Shown here: positions 15,221-21,626 of the stretch, piece by piece
Layout: each line of letters opens with the position of its first letter
Numbering within the stretch: the stretch's first letter is position 1
NCBI GenBank assembly: GCA_031256725.1
Contig: JAIRQE010000021.1
Span: forward strand, 60,001 to 92,000
Reading direction: 5' to 3'
DNA length: 32,000 bases
Source of the DNA: Propionibacteriaceae bacterium
GTDB taxonomy: Bacteria; Actinomycetota; Actinomycetes; Propionibacteriales; Propionibacteriaceae
Made by a program: the position numbers and the translations under genes
Notes under the pieces: generated by a model
Seen by the model: only the letters and a program-made list of their open reading frames with translations
Told to the model about the DNA's origin: nothing
The model's database searches: none

Positions 15221-15242
15221 AGCGGCGAGACAGCGGCGAGAC
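15221..15242. repeat. tandem 11-bp duplication (AGCGGCGAGAC x2) covering the 3' end of tRNA-Ser
   Basis: Exact adjacent copies at 15221-15231 and 15232-15242. The second copy is part of the tRNA acceptor and T stem. Confidence 0.9.
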
Positions 15243-15318
15243 AGGGATTCGAACCCTGGAGGCTGTTACACCTGGCCGCTTTCAAGGCGGCTGCACTAGA
15301 CCACTATGCGATCTCGCC
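15234..15318 (-). tRNA. tRNA-Ser (anticodon UGA)
   Basis: Hand-folded cloverleaf:
- acceptor GGCGAGA/TCTCGCC
- D arm GCAT-AGTGGTCTA-GTGC
- anticodon stem GCCGC/GCGGC with loop CTTGAAA
- 16-nt long variable arm
- T arm CAGGG-TTCGAAT-CCCTG
- discriminator G; no encoded CCA. Confidence 0.9.
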
Positions 15319-16236: not shown

Positions 16237-16353
16237 GTACCAATGATAAAGGGATCTACTTGTGCAAAATCTAACTGAATCAGGAAACCTCACCTAACTA
16301 CGCAGAGTCACGAAGGCATGCACTGTCGAGACGATGTCCAAAACCGAGGTATG

Positions 16354-17238
16354 TCAGAATTCGGTTTGCTCAGAAGGGTCCCCAACCAATCTATCCATCA
16401 ACCGCTGGATTCTTTCGTCAACTCCACCGTCGGGGTCTAGGGCAGCGACGATGGCGCCGAAGGTATGAATGGCAGTGAGAGCAAATCCAAGGTCTTGGTC
16501 TTCCTGGGTTGGTTCGCCTTCTCCGCTGCGTGTACGGCGTACCACTCCTGCCGCGAGATCCTGGGACTGGGCCAGCAGGGGTACCAATGCCCCCCGGGCC
16601 TGTGGGTGGCGGATTCCGTAGAGGTAGAGTTCCAACCCCAGGAGGGTGTTGGCCGTGTGCTCGGGTGAGTCGACGCAGGAGGTGAAGGCCTCGGACACGG
16701 TCAGATCCTGGATTTGGGTACGGGCCTCATCATTAGCTAGGGCCTCGCGAGCGAGGGCCAAGAGCAGGGCCTCCTTGGAGTCGAAGTTCGCATAGAGGGC
16801 GCCTTTGGTATATCCAGCGGCTGTGGCGACATCACCTACTGAGGCACCTTCGTACCCTTTTTCGGCGAAGACTCTTGCGGCGGCAGCAAGCAACTCCGAG
16901 CGGGTACGCTCGGCTTTGGAACTGTTACCTTTGAGCCTGGCGCTTGCTGCTTGTACTGCTTCATTGATGTCTTTGGTTGCTTGGCGTAACTCTTCGGCGA
17001 TTTCTCGGGTCACTTGGCTGGTGGTACTTGTGACTGCGGCAACCTCGCGGTGGGTCTGGGTGGTGGCGTCAGTGACCTTGCGGCGAAGTACGCGGTTGAG
17101 CTCGGCTGTGGCTTCCCGGACCGCCCGTGATGCGGATCGGAGGTCTTTGTCCGCTGATGCGGCGCCAGCGACCAGACGGGTACGCAATTCCTCGGCTGTG
17201 GCGGAAACCTCACTCATCGGATCTGTGTTACCTGACAT
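16354..17238 (-). CDS. TetR/AcrR family transcriptional regulator with an about 105-aa N-terminal helical extension
   Basis: HTH region RSELLAAAARVFAEKGYEGASVGDVATAAGYTKGALYANF begins near aa 110. The gene is divergent from the ABC operon, with palindromic operators between them. Confidence 0.85.
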   Translation of the reverse strand: MSGNTDPMSEVSATAEELRTRLVAGAASADKDLRSASRAVREATAELNRVLRRKVTDATTQTHREVAAVTSTTSQVTREIAEELRQATKDINEAVQAASARLKGNSSKAERTRSELLAAAARVFAEKGYEGASVGDVATAAGYTKGALYANFDSKEALLLALAREALANDEARTQIQDLTVSEAFTSCVDSPEHTANTLLGLELYLYGIRHPQARGALVPLLAQSQDLAAGVVRRTRSGEGEPTQEDQDLGFALTAIHTFGAIVAALDPDGGVDERIQRLMDRLVGDPSEQTEF

Positions 17239-17273
17239 GAAGACAGACTACAGGTGATGCCAATCCACTTGCA

Positions 17274-17319
17274 ATACCGACCGGTATGTACTAGTCTCTC
17301 AAAATATACTGACCGGTAT
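17274..17319. promoter_or_regulatory. two 14-bp palindromic operator candidates, ATACCGACCGGTAT and ATACTGACCGGTAT
   Basis: Sites at 17274-17287 (perfect ATACCG-AC-CGGTAT) and 17306-17319 (one mismatch), in the 79-98-bp TetR/ABC divergent region. Confidence 0.6.
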
Positions 17320-17335
17320 GGATTGGAGAATGGAC

Positions 17336-18094
17336 ATGGACGAAATCCTCAGAATCGAAGGATTAAGCAAGTGTTATCGAAGTGGCAAAAAGGCCGTACA
17401 CGCCAACGATCACGTCACCCTGCAGATCAAGGCGGGCCAAGTCGTCGGCCTACTTGGACATAATGGGGCTGGAAAAACGACCCTCGTCAACCAAGTCGTG
17501 GGTCTCGCAAAACCAGATTCAGGGCAAATCACCCTCGCCGGAATCAATGCCATCACCCATCCCCACCAGGCTCGACGCTTGGCGTCCGTACAAGCCCAGG
17601 CGAACGTACCAATCACTGGGCTTACTCCTCGTCGCGCCATAGAGTTGGTGGCACAGATTCGCGGAGCCTCCCGTACCCAAGCTCGCAAAGACACCGCCCA
17701 CCTGATCGAAGCCCTCGACCTGGGACCCTGGGAAAAGGTTGCAGCCGAGAAGGTCTCCGGCGGTGTAGCCCGGCTCACTGCCTTCGCCATGGCAACAGTG
17801 GTACCAGGTCGGCTCGTCGTCTTGGATGAACCCACCAATGACGTTGACCCCGTACGCCGCAGGTTGCTTTGGGAGGAGATCCGCCGGGTTGCTGACGCGG
17901 GATCCGGAGTGTTGCTTGTCACCCATAACGTACGCGAAGCCGAGTCCGTTGTTGACCGCGTCACGATCCTCCACCATGGACGGGTACTCGTGGATTCCAC
18001 TCCCAGTGAGCTCACGAGTACCCACGAGACCCTTGAAGACGTGTACATCACCCTCGTCGGAACAGATACCACAGAATTGGAGTACGCATCATGA
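17336..18094 (+). CDS. ABC transporter ATP-binding protein (ABC-2/DrrA-like)
   Basis: Walker A GHNGAGKTT, signature VSGGVARL, Walker B LVVLDEPT. The ATG at 17336 has GGAGA 7 nt upstream. The 17318 ATG lies inside the second operator. Confidence 0.9.
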   Translation: MDEILRIEGLSKCYRSGKKAVHANDHVTLQIKAGQVVGLLGHNGAGKTTLVNQVVGLAKPDSGQITLAGINAITHPHQARRLASVQAQANVPITGLTPRRAIELVAQIRGASRTQARKDTAHLIEALDLGPWEKVAAEKVSGGVARLTAFAMATVVPGRLVVLDEPTNDVDPVRRRLLWEEIRRVADAGSGVLLVTHNVREAESVVDRVTILHHGRVLVDSTPSELTSTHETLEDVYITLVGTDTTELEYAS

Positions 18095-18198
18095 GTACAA
18101 CATCGCATCCCATCGTAGATCACCCATCCACCGACTTACTCGAAGACGTGTACACCCTCGTCGGATCTGACATCATAGAAATGGAGAATGTTTCATGA
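18091..18198 (+). CDS. 35-codon relay ORF created by duplication of the ATPase/permease junction (MSTTSHPIVDHPSTDLLEDVYTLVGSDIIEMENVS)
   Basis: Its ATG overlaps the ATPase stop (ATGA), and its TGA overlaps the permease ATG (ATGA). Its C-terminal half repeats the ATPase C-terminus LEDVYITLVGTD. Confidence 0.35.
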   Translation: MSTTSHPIVDHPSTDLLEDVYTLVGSDIIEMENVS

Positions 18199-18986
18199 GC
18201 ACCATTGCCCCCCACAGGACTACGGATCTTCTTAGTACCACCTTCTCGGCAGTCTCGGTCCTTCGCCAACTGCCACTCATCATTCAATGGCAGTTCCTCC
18301 GCATGTCTGGGCATATTGCCCTGCTTGTCATCATTCAGATCCTCCTCTCGGTCACCACTGTGCTTGGGTACGGCCTGCTGGTTGGTATCCCCTCCCCAGA
18401 GCAGGCGCTTTATCTGGCAACCGGTGCATCCACGGTCACCCTGATCATGGTTGGTTTAGTGATGACGCCTCAAATGGTGACGACCTCTCGTACCGAGGGA
18501 TCACTTGACTGGATACGTACCCTGCCTGTCCCCAGAACCATCTTCCTCATCGCAGACCTCACCATCTGGACCTTCATCGCTCTGCCTGGTACAGCCCTGG
18601 GAGTGATCGCCGGAGCATGGAAGTTCGACATCGACCTGTCACTGTCACCCTGGCTTCCCCTGGCCGCCATCGCAGTCTCCCTCACCTCCTCCTGTGTAGG
18701 CTATGCGATCGCCTGCCTGTGTTCACCTCAGATAGCGCAACTCATGTCACAGGTACTGATCTTCGTTCTTCTCTTCTTCTCCCCAGTGAGTTATCCGGCT
18801 TCCCGTCTTCCCACCTGGCTAGCAGAGGTACACCAGTGGCTCCCCATCGAGCCCATGGCCGACGCCATGAGAGCTTCCTTAGTCAGCGATGTCTTCACAG
18901 TCTCAACCCGCTCCGTTGTTGTGCTGAGTGTATGGCTGGTCGCCTCAATCACCGGAGTCAGCTGGGCCCTAAGTAGGCGAATATAG
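18195..18986 (+). CDS. ABC-2 type transporter permease
   Basis: 263 aa with about 6 TM helices, immediately downstream of the ATPase. This is typical ABC-2 organisation. Confidence 0.85.
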   Translation: MSTIAPHRTTDLLSTTFSAVSVLRQLPLIIQWQFLRMSGHIALLVIIQILLSVTTVLGYGLLVGIPSPEQALYLATGASTVTLIMVGLVMTPQMVTTSRTEGSLDWIRTLPVPRTIFLIADLTIWTFIALPGTALGVIAGAWKFDIDLSLSPWLPLAAIAVSLTSSCVGYAIACLCSPQIAQLMSQVLIFVLLFFSPVSYPASRLPTWLAEVHQWLPIEPMADAMRASLVSDVFTVSTRSVVVLSVWLVASITGVSWALSRRI

Positions 18987-19015
18987 CCTTTATGGGACAG
19001 AGGAAGAGTAGGAAT

Positions 19016-19032
19016 TATAGCTCGCAGCTATA
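19016..19032 (+). terminator. weak hairpin TATAGCT-CGC-AGCTATA after the ABC operon
   Basis: 7-bp perfect inverted repeat 30 nt after the permease stop, followed by TTGATTT. The stem is AT-rich, so this is a weak call. Confidence 0.3.
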
Positions 19033-19061
19033 TTGATTTAGGGTCTTGGTGGGAATATAAT
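19033..19061 (+). promoter_or_regulatory. sigma-70/SigA-like promoter TTGATT-17 nt-TATAAT for the AT-rich cassette
   Basis: -35 box at 19033-19038, exactly 17-nt spacer, consensus -10 box at 19056-19061. It lies about 100 nt upstream of the AAGGAG Shine-Dalgarno (19157-19162) and the ATG at 19169. Confidence 0.6.
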
Positions 19062-19096
19062 GGTCTAGCAACCACGGTTCTTCGCACGTAGCGTAG

Positions 19097-19140
19097 ATGT
19101 CGATATGATTCCAGCAGGTAGAATGTAGTACTATCGACAT
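19097..19140 (+). promoter_or_regulatory. 5'-UTR stem-loop (ATGTCGATA ... TATCGACAT)
   Basis: 9-bp perfect inverted repeat at 19097-19105 / 19132-19140 with a 26-nt loop, between the predicted promoter and the Shine-Dalgarno. Confidence 0.4.
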
Positions 19141-19168
19141 TGGTTCGAAAGTTGAAAAGGAGTTATGA

Positions 19169-19825
19169 ATGCCTACTGGTACGCAAAGTTCTCTACTACG
19201 CCAGGCAATCACGACAATAAAGAATGCAACCGATAATCAATTAGATAGCTTTGAGGAAGCGGCGGAATTGGCTTCGCAATCAAATTTTGTGAATGAAATT
19301 GCCAAGAAAACTGACCTCCCTGATGACGAAGTGAAGGCTCTAGTCAATGCTGTCTTATCGTTCCTGTTTGCTGCATATCAAAACTCAATTCAAAAAGATG
19401 ACCGCCCAAAACGATTCATCGAGCCTCTGGTGGATGAATTTCCTGACTATTGTAATGAAGAGCTTCTTGGCAGAATTGCTAAGATCTTGGCAATCAGGCC
19501 TCTCGCTATACGGGCGAAGAGGAACTTTCTTTCGCGCGCACATAACACCAAACTCTTGTCATGTGCCATCGTGACAGATCAGCGCCCAGTTTTTGGCGAT
19601 GATCCTGAAGTTGGAGATCACGGTGTGATAATTTACGAAAATCTCAATTTCACATATCTTGAGGCCGGTAGGGATGTTCGAACGCTGTCACTGGCGTGTA
19701 GTATCGATGACCTAAAATCTCTGGAACAGCAGATTGAGCGGGCACGCAAAAAATGGGAAGCGCTGGCGAAGACTCTCAAAGACAGTGGGCGAACAGTTCT
19801 AAACGAAATAGAAGAGATTCAGTAG
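19169..19825 (+). CDS. hypothetical soluble protein (218 aa), cassette gene A
   Basis: AAGGAG 6 nt upstream of the ATG. No TM segments. Helical N-terminus and coiled-coil-like C-terminus (LKSLEQQIERARKKWEALAKTLK). I recognise no family. Confidence 0.7.
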   Translation: MPTGTQSSLLRQAITTIKNATDNQLDSFEEAAELASQSNFVNEIAKKTDLPDDEVKALVNAVLSFLFAAYQNSIQKDDRPKRFIEPLVDEFPDYCNEELLGRIAKILAIRPLAIRAKRNFLSRAHNTKLLSCAIVTDQRPVFGDDPEVGDHGVIIYENLNFTYLEAGRDVRTLSLACSIDDLKSLEQQIERARKKWEALAKTLKDSGRTVLNEIEEIQ

Positions 19826-20466
19826 TGAATGATCAACTGGCAACGTCTATGCCGCACAAAGACTATGTATCGTCAACTTACCTCAGTGTAAGAGATAGCA
19901 GTAGCCTCAGTGTAAGAGATGACAGCAATAGCTTCGATAGTATGTGGGATTATGCAGCGAAAAAGGGTGCTCATCCGCCTTCGTTTCCGAACAGCCAAGT
20001 TTCACATGGCGGGGTAACCCGCCCGTCATCACGAAATGACATCTGGACCTGTATTCAATCCACAGAAGTATCCTTGTGGACCTTTGAATTCACTAGAGAT
20101 ACTAGAGATAATAGTTTGCTCTTCCGTGGACCGATGCCTTTTGTTTTTCCGCAAGCAATCCAATTGTTTGTGTCTGCTTCTGGTGAAAGGGCGTCATATT
20201 CACGTGATGGTTCGGCGAGACCTGTACTATCCGCTATTACACAAAAAACAAAAGAGCTTTTTCGGATTCACAGAACCTTGTGGCTCGTGCTTGTAGTGTG
20301 GGCTTCAATTGGTTGGCTTCTGTTAGGGCTTTCGATTGCTTCGGTAGTGCCATGGCTGACGGTTCCACTTTATGGGGCAGTGGTCATCTTGGTCGCGTCT
20401 GTTGTTGTGGGGGCTTACTTATGGCGGTCTGGAAACAATTTCATTCGGGGTGGTCGTGACACCTGA
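19825..20466 (+). CDS. hypothetical membrane protein (about 213 aa; Ser-rich repeat N-terminus, two C-terminal TM helices), cassette gene B
   Basis: GTG at 19825 overlaps the gene A stop by 1 nt (TAGTG); an alternative ATG is at 19849. TM segments: LWLVLVVWASIGWLLLGLSI and LTVPLYGAVVILVASVVVGAYLW. The 19753 start would overlap gene A by 73 nt. Confidence 0.6.
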   Translation: MNDQLATSMPHKDYVSSTYLSVRDSSSLSVRDDSNSFDSMWDYAAKKGAHPPSFPNSQVSHGGVTRPSSRNDIWTCIQSTEVSLWTFEFTRDTRDNSLLFRGPMPFVFPQAIQLFVSASGERASYSRDGSARPVLSAITQKTKELFRIHRTLWLVLVVWASIGWLLLGLSIASVVPWLTVPLYGAVVILVASVVVGAYLWRSGNNFIRGGRDT

Positions 20467-20800
20467 GGGGAAAAATAGAAAATCTAAAAAAAAGAAAAAT
20501 AAAAACAAGACATCTGAAAATGGAGTTGCTGTACCAAATGGTCAAGCATTAGTAAGGATGTTTGGTGACAAACATGTAAATAAAAGTTTTGTTCGCAGGC
20601 TTGTAAAAGCTTTTGAGACAGAACCTCACATTCTAGTCATGCTAATATTTGGTGGTGCGCTAGTTTTCTCTATTTACCGAGGCGAGATGATCAGCATGAT
20701 AGCCATGGGGGTCTTTCTTGTCGCAACGCAGCTAGTCACGAAGCTTTTTGATAAGGATCATAAGGTTCAAAAAGATCTTAAAAAGCTAACAGAATACTGA
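20450..20800 (+). CDS. small membrane protein (80-116 aa; Lys-rich N-terminus, 2 TM, charged C-tail), cassette gene C
   Basis: GTG starts at 20450 or 20456 overlap the end of gene B; an alternative ATG is at 20558. TM segments: ILVMLIFGGALVFSIY and ISMIAMGVFLVATQLV. C-tail: KLFDKDHKVQKDLKKLTEY. Confidence 0.55.
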   Translation: MVVTPEGKNRKSKKKKNKNKTSENGVAVPNGQALVRMFGDKHVNKSFVRRLVKAFETEPHILVMLIFGGALVFSIYRGEMISMIAMGVFLVATQLVTKLFDKDHKVQKDLKKLTEY

Positions 20801-20903
20801 TATGCGTCGATTAGTCCTGCTGAGCCACTCAGCCATAGAAACCTAGTCTCCGCCTAAAACTCACAGAACTTCTCAGCATCAAGTGGTTCTTCTAACTCCG
20901 CTC

Positions 20904-21009
20904 GGGATTGGGAAGTTGTACCCCAATTCTGGTGCTGATCTGCGTACCAAAAGTTCACAACTTGAGAAGAGCCATGGTCCAAGATCCAGGGATTGAGAAG
21001 TTGTACCCA
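20904..21009 (+). repeat. two 21-bp direct repeats (GGGATTGRGAAGTTGTACCC) flanking the palindrome AAGTTCACAACTT
   Basis: Repeats at 20904-20924 and 20989-21009 (19/21 identical); palindrome at 20951-20963. All lie upstream of nfeD. Confidence 0.7.
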
Positions 21010-21107
21010 CCTCATGACGAAGCAGCACAACAACTAAGGGTTCACTCATCAATCCAAACCTGGCATTCCTGGTAGAATTGACTTCCGGAACTAGTGAAAG
21101 ACTCCAC

Positions 21108-21626
21108 ATGGTCGGTTTCATTTTGACGGCCGCTATCGGCCTTATTCTCCTTCTCGTTTTTCTGATTTTTGATGGCATCTTGGATGCTGTCCATGTTGAT
21201 TTCGGTGGGTCGGGAATCTTCTCAGGTGCGTCTATTGGCGGGCTGTTGACGGGGATCGGATGCGGCGGAATCATTGGTACCTCCCAGGGTTGGGGATTCC
21301 TCGCCTCCTTCATGCTGGGCGTACTCGTTGGTGTGGCTATCGCCGCCATTGCTGTAGTCCTTTACCGGCTTCTTCGCAAAGCAGAGGAAACCGAAGCGGA
21401 GGTCTCTCTAGATCGTCTAGTCGGAACAACTGGTGTTGTCACTGCTGGGTCTAAGCCCGGCTCTAGGGGCCTCGTGCAGGTGATGTACCTCGGCTCCCCG
21501 CGTACCGTCTCTTTTACGTGCGAAACCCCTTTGGCTACTGGCGATCCTGTGATCGTCACTGAAGTACTCGCTCCCGAAGTTGTCAATGTCATCCCAAGTC
21601 TCCCAACAGGAAGGACCCTTGAATGA
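21108..21626 (+). CDS. NfeD family membrane protein
   Basis: N-terminal TM helices plus a C-terminal OB-like segment (GTTGVVTAGSKPGSRGLVQVMYLGSPRTVSFTCE...GDPVIVTEV). ATGA overlap with the flotillin gene. An alternative TTG start is at 21078. Confidence 0.8.
   Translation: MVGFILTAAIGLILLLVFLIFDGILDAVHVDFGGSGIFSGASIGGLLTGIGCGGIIGTSQGWGFLASFMLGVLVGVAIAAIAVVLYRLLRKAEETEAEVSLDRLVGTTGVVTAGSKPGSRGLVQVMYLGSPRTVSFTCETPLATGDPVIVTEVLAPEVVNVIPSLPTGRTLE

Follow-up and report, generated by a model that had tools for sequence, protein, structure and literature searches.

What kind of element is the compact three-gene cassette that lies directly upstream of the nfeD-flotillin genes in a Propionibacteriaceae bacterium, and what might its products do? 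The locus is part of a window, i.e., the entire analyzed stretch of 32,000 nucleotides (assembly GCA_031256725.1, contig JAIRQE010000021.1, positions 60,001 to 92,000 of the forward strand), in which three genes, here termed A, B and C, occupy an AT-rich segment at positions 18987-20835 of the window. A preliminary description prepared from the sequence alone recognized no family for any of the three products and read the locus as a horizontally acquired, abortive-infection-like island. On the basis of profile searches, an AlphaFold2 (AF2) model and Foldseek comparisons, the first part of that statement no longer applies to A, which is a prokaryotic COMMD-like protein, while B and C are indeed without family matches. 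The same three-gene order is kept in three further versions of the cassette, in which the COMMD-like gene is followed by two genes for predicted membrane proteins. At about even confidence, we view this operon as a conflict module.

The first gene encodes a divergent COMMD-like protein

Gene A (19169-19825, + strand) encodes a 218-residue protein identical to the NCBI entry 'MAG: hypothetical protein LBG99_07210 [Propionibacteriaceae bacterium]'. None of the three products has a significant match in Pfam, PADLOC, NCBIfam or PHROGs: a direct scan with A gives a weak, below cut-off match to DUF2802 (E = 3.6e-5), and the sole match in PADLOC-DB v2 is that of A to SngA (E = 0.025, 12 bits), with none for B or C. 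When 5.8 billion protein clusters were searched by word index, only A itself and three relatives at ~50% identity were recovered. A profile built from the four sequences of this close subfamily (A1), when run against 1.84 billion representatives, retrieved 2,749 proteins (E <= 1e-3), with few exceptions 200-235 residues in length. An alignment of 35 family members displays two conserved motifs, R-I-x-T-D-x-R-P-I-F-G-D and A-L-D-x-x-D-L...R-A-x-x-K, and the profile derived from it (A2) matches PDB 9q6a_A over its full length in an hmmsearch of PDB (E = 2.4e-38, positions 2-213 against 21-235); profile A1 alone reaches the same chain at E = 5.5e-6. The PDB entries thus matched by A2 (9Q6A, 9Q6C and 9Q6D) are deposited as "COMMD-like protein MBK5214510", which comes from a member of the Flavobacteriaceae.

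Structural modeling points in the same direction. An AF2 model of A based on 12 sequences (mean predicted local distance difference test score, pLDDT, of 82.6) replaced an earlier run with 4 sequences in which the COMM region had been left unmodeled (pLDDT 25-32). In this model a helical N-terminal (HN) domain spans residues 1-126 (19169-19546, + strand; pLDDT mostly 85-94), with helices at residues 4-19, 22-34, 40-47, 52-71, 76-90, 92-95, 97-107 and 110-125. It is followed by a COMM domain at residues 127-205 (19547-19783, + strand), which comprises strands at 128-142, 150-165 and 169-177 and a helix at 179-205, and which carries the motifs IVTDQRPVFGD and DDL...RARKK. A retains the family-invariant R139, R191 and K195 together with the near-invariant D137, P140, F142 and D181. 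In a Foldseek search of PDB, 9q6a is the top match of the model (E = 1.9e-7, TM-score 0.53, 212-219 aligned columns), followed by human COMMD chains, several of which match at E values of 6e-5 to 1e-3; all of the best 20 PDB matches are COMMD-like or COMMD chains, and the COMM domain of Commd9 (6bp6) yields a TMt of 0.73-0.75. The Pfam COMM_domain model (PF07258) matches neither A (E <= 0.1) nor 10 other family members (E <= 0.01), as might be expected since the reported identity of the family to eukaryotic COMMDs is below 20%.

A is therefore a divergent member of the prokaryotic COMMD-like family with the two-domain HN + COMM architecture. This family was described by Liu et al. (Nat Commun 2026, PMC13392464), who reported 250 bacterial and 111 archaeal members from a structure search, showed that solved members form homo-octameric or homo-decameric rings through their COMM domains, noted less than 20% identity to eukaryotic COMMDs and stated that the function in prokaryotes is unknown. 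A and the Flavobacteriaceae protein share the same architecture at ~220 residues (the HN domain of 9Q6A has six helices), and the sporadic phylogenetic distribution of the family as a whole is mirrored by that of the A subfamily. They differ in that A is only ~17% identical to 9Q6A and belongs to a deep and very rare subfamily, with 4 versions among the 5.8 billion clusters. The 2,749 representatives recovered here by hidden Markov model (HMM) searches may be compared with the 250 bacterial members from the structure search. The HN + COMM fold is further common to A and the eukaryotic COMMD1-10 proteins of the Commander/CCC complex (PDB 8F2R, 8P0W, 6BP6), which form a heterodecamer as opposed to the homomeric assemblies of the solved prokaryotic proteins. 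By analogy with these solved relatives, A would be expected to assemble into a ring.

Genes B and C encode predicted membrane hairpin proteins

The genes downstream of A are packed tightly, as the preliminary description had noted: the stop codon of A and the GTG start of B overlap as TAGTG (19823-19827), and either in-frame GTG available to C (20450 or 20456) falls inside the 3' end of B. Gene B (19825-20466, + strand), delimited by its stop-free run and its conservation between cassettes, would encode 213 residues from the GTG at 19825, with an alternative ATG at 19849. The features earlier attributed to its product stand: a Ser-rich tandem repeat (19881-19925, + strand; two 21-nt copies with a 24-nt period, 90% identity) near the N-terminus, and two C-terminal transmembrane segments that form a hairpin (20275-20424, + strand; residues 151-173 and 178-200 joined by the loop VVPW, hydropathy peaks of 2.1-2.3). 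The N-terminal region ahead of the hairpin is poorly conserved and predicted to be cytoplasmic. Over its C-terminal half B shares 34-38% identity with the second gene product of the cassettes L001, L003 and L004, with conserved hairpin motifs RLHR-x2-W, LGL, P-x-WL and LG-x2-LW, and its hairpin keeps all residues that are invariant in this subfamily.

Gene C (20450-20800, + strand), recognized from its stop-free run and topology, would encode 116 residues from the GTG at 20450; the gene caller started it at the ATG at 20372, which gives 142 residues. As described earlier, its product has a Lys-rich N-terminus (15 K+R in 56 residues, net charge +11), two transmembrane segments (residues 57-75 and 81-101) and a charged tail. 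The third genes of L001, L003 and L004 are mutually homologous (E = 1e-5 to 1e-16), and C shares position, size and topology with them. No relatives of B or C were found outside the three other cassette versions, C not having been searched in the large protein collections. A protein search with B returned nothing, not even B itself, because the metagenome gene caller had never called it. The same caller annotated a 35-residue open reading frame at 18091-18198, between the ABC ATPase and permease genes upstream of the cassette. Since it skipped B while calling this frame, the automated annotation of the AT-rich island is unreliable.

The coding potential of the three frames, a check proposed in the preliminary description, was assessed against 2,000 composition-matched shuffles. 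The stop-free runs on the + strand extend over 242 (B), 218 and 146 (C) codons, all beyond the range of the shuffles, whose longest run is 212 codons and whose third-longest is at most 108; the maximum on the real - strand is 73 codons. These runs and the conserved hairpin show B and C to be genuine coding regions for small inner-membrane hairpin proteins. Basic residues flank both hairpins, and an N-in/C-in orientation is predicted for B; on this account the soluble parts of both proteins would lie on the cytoplasmic side of the membrane, the same side as A.

A conserved first gene with variable downstream partners

The proposed search for co-occurrence of the three genes elsewhere showed that L001, L002/L003 and L004/L005 have A, B and C in the same order, which makes four cassette versions with that of the window. 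Each of the three relatives of A is followed by a homologue of B and then by a small third gene with two transmembrane segments. Hence, this subfamily is always followed by two genes for transmembrane hairpins, an association absent from PMC13392464. The L002 cassette lies in a transposase-rich region with ISL3, DDE_Tnp_1, rve and Transposase_mut genes. In L001, genes for a 1,200-residue protein (weak matches to MarR_2 and DUF5663, and a weak Csa3-like match at E = 7.6e-5) and a 398-residue protein lie directly upstream of A-B-C on the same strand (L001:2264-5866); they are not found in the other cassettes.

To place this arrangement in the wider family, gene maps were compared for 14 loci from named genomes, which span Actinomycetota, Planctomycetota, Acidobacteriota, Proteobacteria, Bacteroidota, Armatimonadota and others, and 5 metagenome loci; the partner types were thus seen over ~20 loci in at least 8 phyla. 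The COMMD-like gene is mostly the first in a compact, co-directional operon of two to three genes, the downstream members of which vary; two loci (L014 and L075) have no close co-directional partner. The commonest architecture in the sample, present in seven loci (L007, L008, L010, L011, L072/L073, L076 and L077), has a ~170-190-residue protein followed by a DUF7689 protein (E = 1.9e-34). In the latter, Cys32, His105 and His127 are invariant and fall into a YNC...H...DIxH pattern suggestive of a papain-like or NlpC-like hydrolase; sequence searches found no solved homologues of DUF7689 or of the middle gene product. Two loci instead carry a ~320-residue protein followed by a calcineurin-like phosphoesterase (Metallophos, E = 1.7e-11), and three carry a ~200-residue protein (cl9) followed by a ~125-residue protein, with weak mutual similarity. 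In a further two loci (L012 and L013), from Acidimicrobiia-type metagenome-assembled genomes, a 316-residue protein precedes a RES-domain protein (L012:7700-8422 and L013:7461-8177; Pfam E = 1e-11, above the Pfam cut-off), the two RES copies being 67% identical. An Xre/MbcA-type domain in the 316-residue partner, suspected from a motif, was not confirmed by Pfam (E <= 0.5) or by phmmer against PDB. In a crude neighbor-joining tree the subfamily with two transmembrane partners forms a separate deep clade and the other partner types are nested among DUF7689 operons, a topology of poor resolution that fits with partner swapping.

Regarding the surroundings of these operons, the 150 pooled neighbors of 15 loci, a set compiled without positions or a background control, include members of the DarT, DarG, SIR2-pAgo, RT-protease, HEC-09 and PDC families, as well as transposases, a Phage_GPA replication protein and RadC. 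In L010 a 1,138-residue SNF2 helicase with a full-length HmaA match (E = 6.7e-192; L010:8981-12397) lies 1.2 kb downstream of the COMMD-like/DUF7689 operon. Such conflict-type neighbors are suggestive only. In the literature searched, the operon with two membrane proteins, the modular partners, the association with RES and the family size recovered by HMM appear unreported; the text of PMC13392464 is silent on toxins, immunity, operons and transmembrane partners, and the neighborhoods it analyzes are only those of Myxococcota (with a type VI secretion system-like context), Chlamydia and Haloarchaea.

Composition, boundaries and acquisition of the cassette

The cassette starts immediately after the stop codon of the ABC-2 permease gene (18984-18986), as had been described, and together with its promoter and 3' hairpin makes up a foreign-looking segment at 18987-20850 (no strand). 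Its G+C content is 44.2% at 18987-20835 versus 54.8% in the remaining window, so that the AT-richness noted earlier holds with a contrast of ~10 points, not 15-25; 100-bp windows range between 36 and 53% within the cassette and climb to 60% at 21201. The suggested k-mer analysis sharpens this picture: no other 1.8-kb window of the stretch departs as far in tetranucleotide usage as the cassette does (z = 4.4), and the G+C content at third codon positions (GC3) of A, B and C (0.42, 0.43 and 0.34, respectively) contrasts with 0.53-0.66 across seven flanking genes. The count of four GTAC sites (19128, 19179, 20224 and 20531) was likewise correct and amounts to 2.2/kb versus 8.9/kb outside. However, this contrast arises because the host sequence is the unusual partner: the GTAC count in the cassette is close to what its composition predicts (4 observed versus 7.0 expected), and the window outside 18987-20835 is enriched in GTAC (269 observed versus 115.5 expected, an observed-to-expected ratio of 2.33). 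On the host side GATC is also enriched (ratio 1.98), and TTAA (0.27), TATA (0.34) and CTAG (0.42) are depleted. This palindrome bias could stem from codon or dipeptide bias, methylation or missing cognate restriction systems.

Presence or absence of the cassette at this locus, another of the proposed checks, was examined in 51 related loci, obtained by scanning metagenome contigs with the flotillin gene downstream of the cassette (flotillin 74-95% identical). A, B and C are absent from all 51 nfeD-flotillin loci by blastn and tblastn. In ~14 of these mutY directly abuts nfeD-flotillin, with NfeD 71-78% identical, and nucleotide homology to the relatives ends at ~16236 in mutY to restart at ~21069 in nfeD. 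The missing segment (16240-21068, no strand) is hence larger than the cassette and also contains genes for a TetR regulator (16354-17238, - strand), an ABC ATPase (17318-18094) and the ABC-2 permease (18195-18986). This TetR/ABC module is host-like in G+C, GC3 and GTAC density, yet it is likewise missing from the related loci; the interval 16240-18986 looks like a second variable module beside the cassette, compositionally ameliorated or native-like. Because the missing segment also spans these host-like genes, two nested or successive insertion events are suggested, with A-B-C as the compositionally foreign one. A functional tie between the cassette and the TetR/ABC module was rejected, as the other A-B-C cassettes come without the module. 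The TetR-family regulator, of 294 residues, has a ~110-residue helical N-terminal extension ahead of its helix-turn-helix (TetR_N at residues 116-162), and shows weak apolipoprotein-like repeat matches.

The earlier view of the locus as a horizontally acquired island is thus borne out for the cassette, with the amendment that the segment missing from relatives is larger, at ~16240-21068. Acquisition of A-B-C by horizontal transfer is supported by foreign composition, absence from 51 relatives and copies in unrelated contexts. Consistent with the preliminary description, gene annotation shows no integrase or transposase beside the cassette of the window, and there is no convincing flanking direct repeat. 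Direct and inverted repeats as insertion scars were rejected, the flanks offering only short pairs of low identity (e.g., a 17-nt inverted pair, 76%). A tRNA-Ser gene (anticodon TGA; 15233-15318, - strand) adjoins mutY and is ~0.9 kb away from where the missing segment begins on the left; no att-like repeat tied to it was found in the repeat search of the window. A phage or plasmid origin was rejected, all searches bearing on it being negative: scans of IMG/VR viral contigs with two pattern sets yielded no relatives, tblastn with a family member gave no match against 50,697 phage records or against plasmids, and the BFVD viral predicted structures hold no fold match at E <= 0.001.

Signals for expression

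The cassette appears to carry its own expression signals. The sigma-70-like site TTGATT-17-TATAAT (19033-19061, + strand), a pattern match with 10 of 12 consensus positions, is the best promoter-like site within 18700-21300 and fits the near-consensus promoter proposed earlier. The AAGGAG at 19157-19162 (+ strand), likewise noted earlier, reads as a Shine-Dalgarno sequence spaced 6 nt from the ATG at 19169 that starts gene A. By contrast, the claim of a structured leader of ~100 nt did not hold up: its minimum free energy (-19.3 kcal/mol) is not unusual beside that of shuffled sequences (mean -21.4; z = +0.66), it holds just one local 10-bp hairpin, and with no Rfam match at E <= 1 a riboswitch or structured leader was rejected. 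After C, a hairpin at 20804-20853 (+ strand) with the core stem GCTGAG/CTCAGC (20819-20833) and no U-tract has a minimum free energy of -15.4 kcal/mol (z = -1.58) and would be a weak or uncertain terminator; a scan for terminators gave none in the interval from C to nfeD.

Downstream of the cassette, nfeD and the flotillin gene follow on the same strand, with a spacer of 277 nt between C and nfeD. In this spacer a 20-nt direct repeat, GGGATTG[G/A]GAAGTTGTACCC, occurs at 20904-20923 and 20989-21008, 85 nt apart, and nowhere else in the window. The relative L056 has a single match with 3 mismatches ~245 nt upstream of its nfeD, for which pairwise alignment is uninformative. Taken as a host element, the repeat might fix the right boundary, and it might serve nfeD and the flotillin gene as an operator.

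A possible conflict function and how it compares with known systems

The COMMD-like operons combine a conserved core gene with variable downstream genes, a patchy distribution and horizontal transfer. Since a conserved core with swappable effectors is a layout typical of conflict systems, we favor, at the even confidence stated above, a conflict module of toxin or abortive-infection type for the A-B-C cassette. In such a module the cytosolic COMMD-like ring would serve as the conserved component that scaffolds or regulates the products of the downstream genes, holding its partners or sensing through their cytoplasmic parts, and B and C would act on the membrane as the effector arm, perturbing it once clustered or released. 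Clustering of 8-10 hairpins by the ring would offer a simple route to such a perturbation. In Commander, which acts at membranes, the HN domains bind the extended N-terminal regions of CCDC22/93; by analogy, A would be likely to contact B and C through their N-terminal cytoplasmic portions. This contact, toxicity of B and C, and any anti-phage role are inferences; a defence role for the cassette is plausible. The abortive-infection-like character assigned to it earlier has been neither demonstrated nor disproved: against it stands the lack of PADLOC, PHROG or NCBIfam matches for the three products, and in its favor are the sister operons with RES, metallophosphoesterase and DUF7689 genes and the proximity of some family loci to DarTG, SIR2-pAgo or HmaA-like genes. 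Generalization of this reading, such that COMMD-like rings are the core of widespread, unrecognized, mobile and modular three-gene conflict systems, is a tentative and somewhat doubtful extension. Under that reading, and no less tentatively, the effector arm might be the transmembrane hairpin pair, a RES NAD+-targeting toxin, a Cys/His hydrolase of the DUF7689 type or a metallophosphoesterase.

Comparison with better-understood systems underscores both the resemblance and the distinctness of the cassette. Unlike Commander, it has no CCDC, Retriever or WASH components, its partners being tiny transmembrane proteins of the same operon. The sister operons in L012 and L013 are reminiscent of RES-Xre toxin-antitoxin systems in that they end in a RES gene with the 316-residue protein in the position of the antitoxin, and COMMD-like operons share with RES-Xre and other multi-gene toxin modules a compact, overlapping and horizontally mobile organization. 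The cassette of the window differs from RES-Xre in lacking a RES domain in A, B and C by Pfam and in having an additional, predicted ring-forming first gene. Transmembrane effectors of CBASS and Pycsar, as well as class II holins, are small proteins with two transmembrane segments and charged termini, a layout that B and C resemble. The transmembrane proteins downstream of a cytosolic component and the foreign, patchy nature of the cassette are likewise CBASS/Pycsar-like. However, the cassette is without a cyclase, a nucleotide sensor, an endolysin or any PADLOC or PHROG match. It is accordingly not a member of the known defence systems, the holin/lysis cassettes or the RES-Xre toxin-antitoxin systems.

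Several observations weigh against a conflict function. None of the three proteins matches a defence, phage or curated protein family in the database scans given above, and most immediate neighbors of family members that were tested have no defence match. The partner type follows the A tree, itself poorly resolved, only loosely, and homology of B to the common middle gene of the family was rejected (hhalign probability 0.1%). AlphaFold predicted no complexes of COMMD-like proteins with neighboring gene products in Myxococcota, Chlamydia and Haloarchaea (PMC13392464). Within the cassette itself, the N-terminal half of B is shorter than and diverged from those of the other cassettes, the gene caller skipped B, and C has no detectable sequence similarity to the third genes of the other cassettes. 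Additionally, for the A-B-C subfamily the conflict reading draws on sequences and predicted structures.

Alternative explanations

An unlikely explanation, if one still to be taken seriously, is that the cassette encodes a membrane scaffold without a conflict role, in which B and C would not be toxins and would instead anchor the COMMD-like ring to the inner membrane so as to organize or stabilize membrane proteins or domains. This would be a counterpart of the membrane role of eukaryotic COMMD proteins, which act in endosomal membrane trafficking (PMC13392464), and might possibly involve the adjacent NfeD-flotillin (SPFH) microdomain system. The COMMD fold of A and the cytoplasmic extensions of the hairpins B and C suit it, and so does the placement of the cassette just ahead of nfeD-flotillin in the same orientation, where no canonical terminator intervenes. 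A second family operon, of the COMMD-like/DUF7689 type, lies 3.5 kb from two Band_7 (SPFH) genes (L072:4635-6644), which with the window makes 2 of ~20 loci near SPFH genes, possibly by coincidence. However, the adjacency to nfeD-flotillin came about by insertion, since relatives have mutY beside nfeD and no cassette; the three other A-B-C cassettes are not beside SPFH genes, and Band_7 is not among the recurrent neighbor families of 15 loci. Further, sister operons bear a RES toxin or hydrolase-type partners, not membrane proteins, and the foreign composition and patchy distribution better fit an accessory element. Rather improbable is a selfish addiction module of the toxin-antitoxin type with no dedicated anti-phage role, which would stabilize the mobile DNA carrying it and in which B and/or C would be small membrane toxins neutralized or regulated by A. 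Such a module would be at home in a compact, translationally coupled and horizontally acquired operon with its own promoter, in the transposase-rich context of L002 and in a family whose sister operons end in RES, a classical toxin domain of toxin-antitoxin systems. It sits less well with the presence of three genes, not two, with A as a 218-residue, predicted ring-forming scaffold unlike typical small antitoxins, with the lack of an integrase, transposase or repeats around the copy in the window, and with the lack of plasmid or phage matches to the family member searched. An addiction module and a conflict module differ mainly in biological role, and these data do not separate them.

The cassette could also be thought of as a decaying remnant in which A alone is functional and B and C are degenerating or spurious frames, to which we attach little probability. 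The skipping of B by the gene caller, its shorter and diverged N-terminal half and the dissimilarity of C to other third genes would all be natural in a remnant, but the three + strand frames surpass 2,000 shuffles against a - strand maximum of 73 codons, the hairpin of B retains all subfamily-invariant residues, there are no frameshifts or internal stops, the starts and stops overlap tightly, and C retains position, size and topology. Least probable, to the point of being barely credible, is a remnant of a prophage or lysis cassette with C as a class-II-type holin and A and B as phage accessory proteins. C is holin-like, being small with two transmembrane segments and a charged C-terminal tail, and the AT-rich composition is foreign; against this, no endolysin, spanin or phage gene is nearby, A, B and C have no PHROG match, the viral contig, phage record and viral structure searches cited above were empty, and A belongs to a cellular COMMD-like family.

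Implications for the COMMD-like family

COMMD-like proteins of prokaryotes were recognized only in 2025/26; their structures have been solved, and the published neighborhood analyses predicted no binding partners. The window and its related loci supply candidate partners, whose genes share a tightly coupled operon with the COMMD-like gene and are inherited together with it in four versions of the cassette. The sampled loci suggest a rule whereby a COMMD-like gene comes first and is followed by interchangeable genes, among them one for the bona fide toxin domain RES. Binding of partners by the ring, toxicity of these partners and its control by the ring thereby become testable. If B and C proved to be anchors without activity, or if the operonic association were incidental, the cassette would merely be another accessory island with a member of a known family. 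If the general reading of COMMD-like rings as the core of widespread conflict systems is true, the A-B-C cassette would offer the first instance in which a COMMD-like protein of prokaryotes comes with membrane partners of its own, and the COMMD ring of the eukaryotic Commander complex would descend from a bacterial toxin-regulating or immune scaffold. Provided that the bacterial ancestor was such a conflict-system (or membrane-tethered) scaffold, COMMD would join the eukaryotic machineries that derive from bacterial conflict systems.

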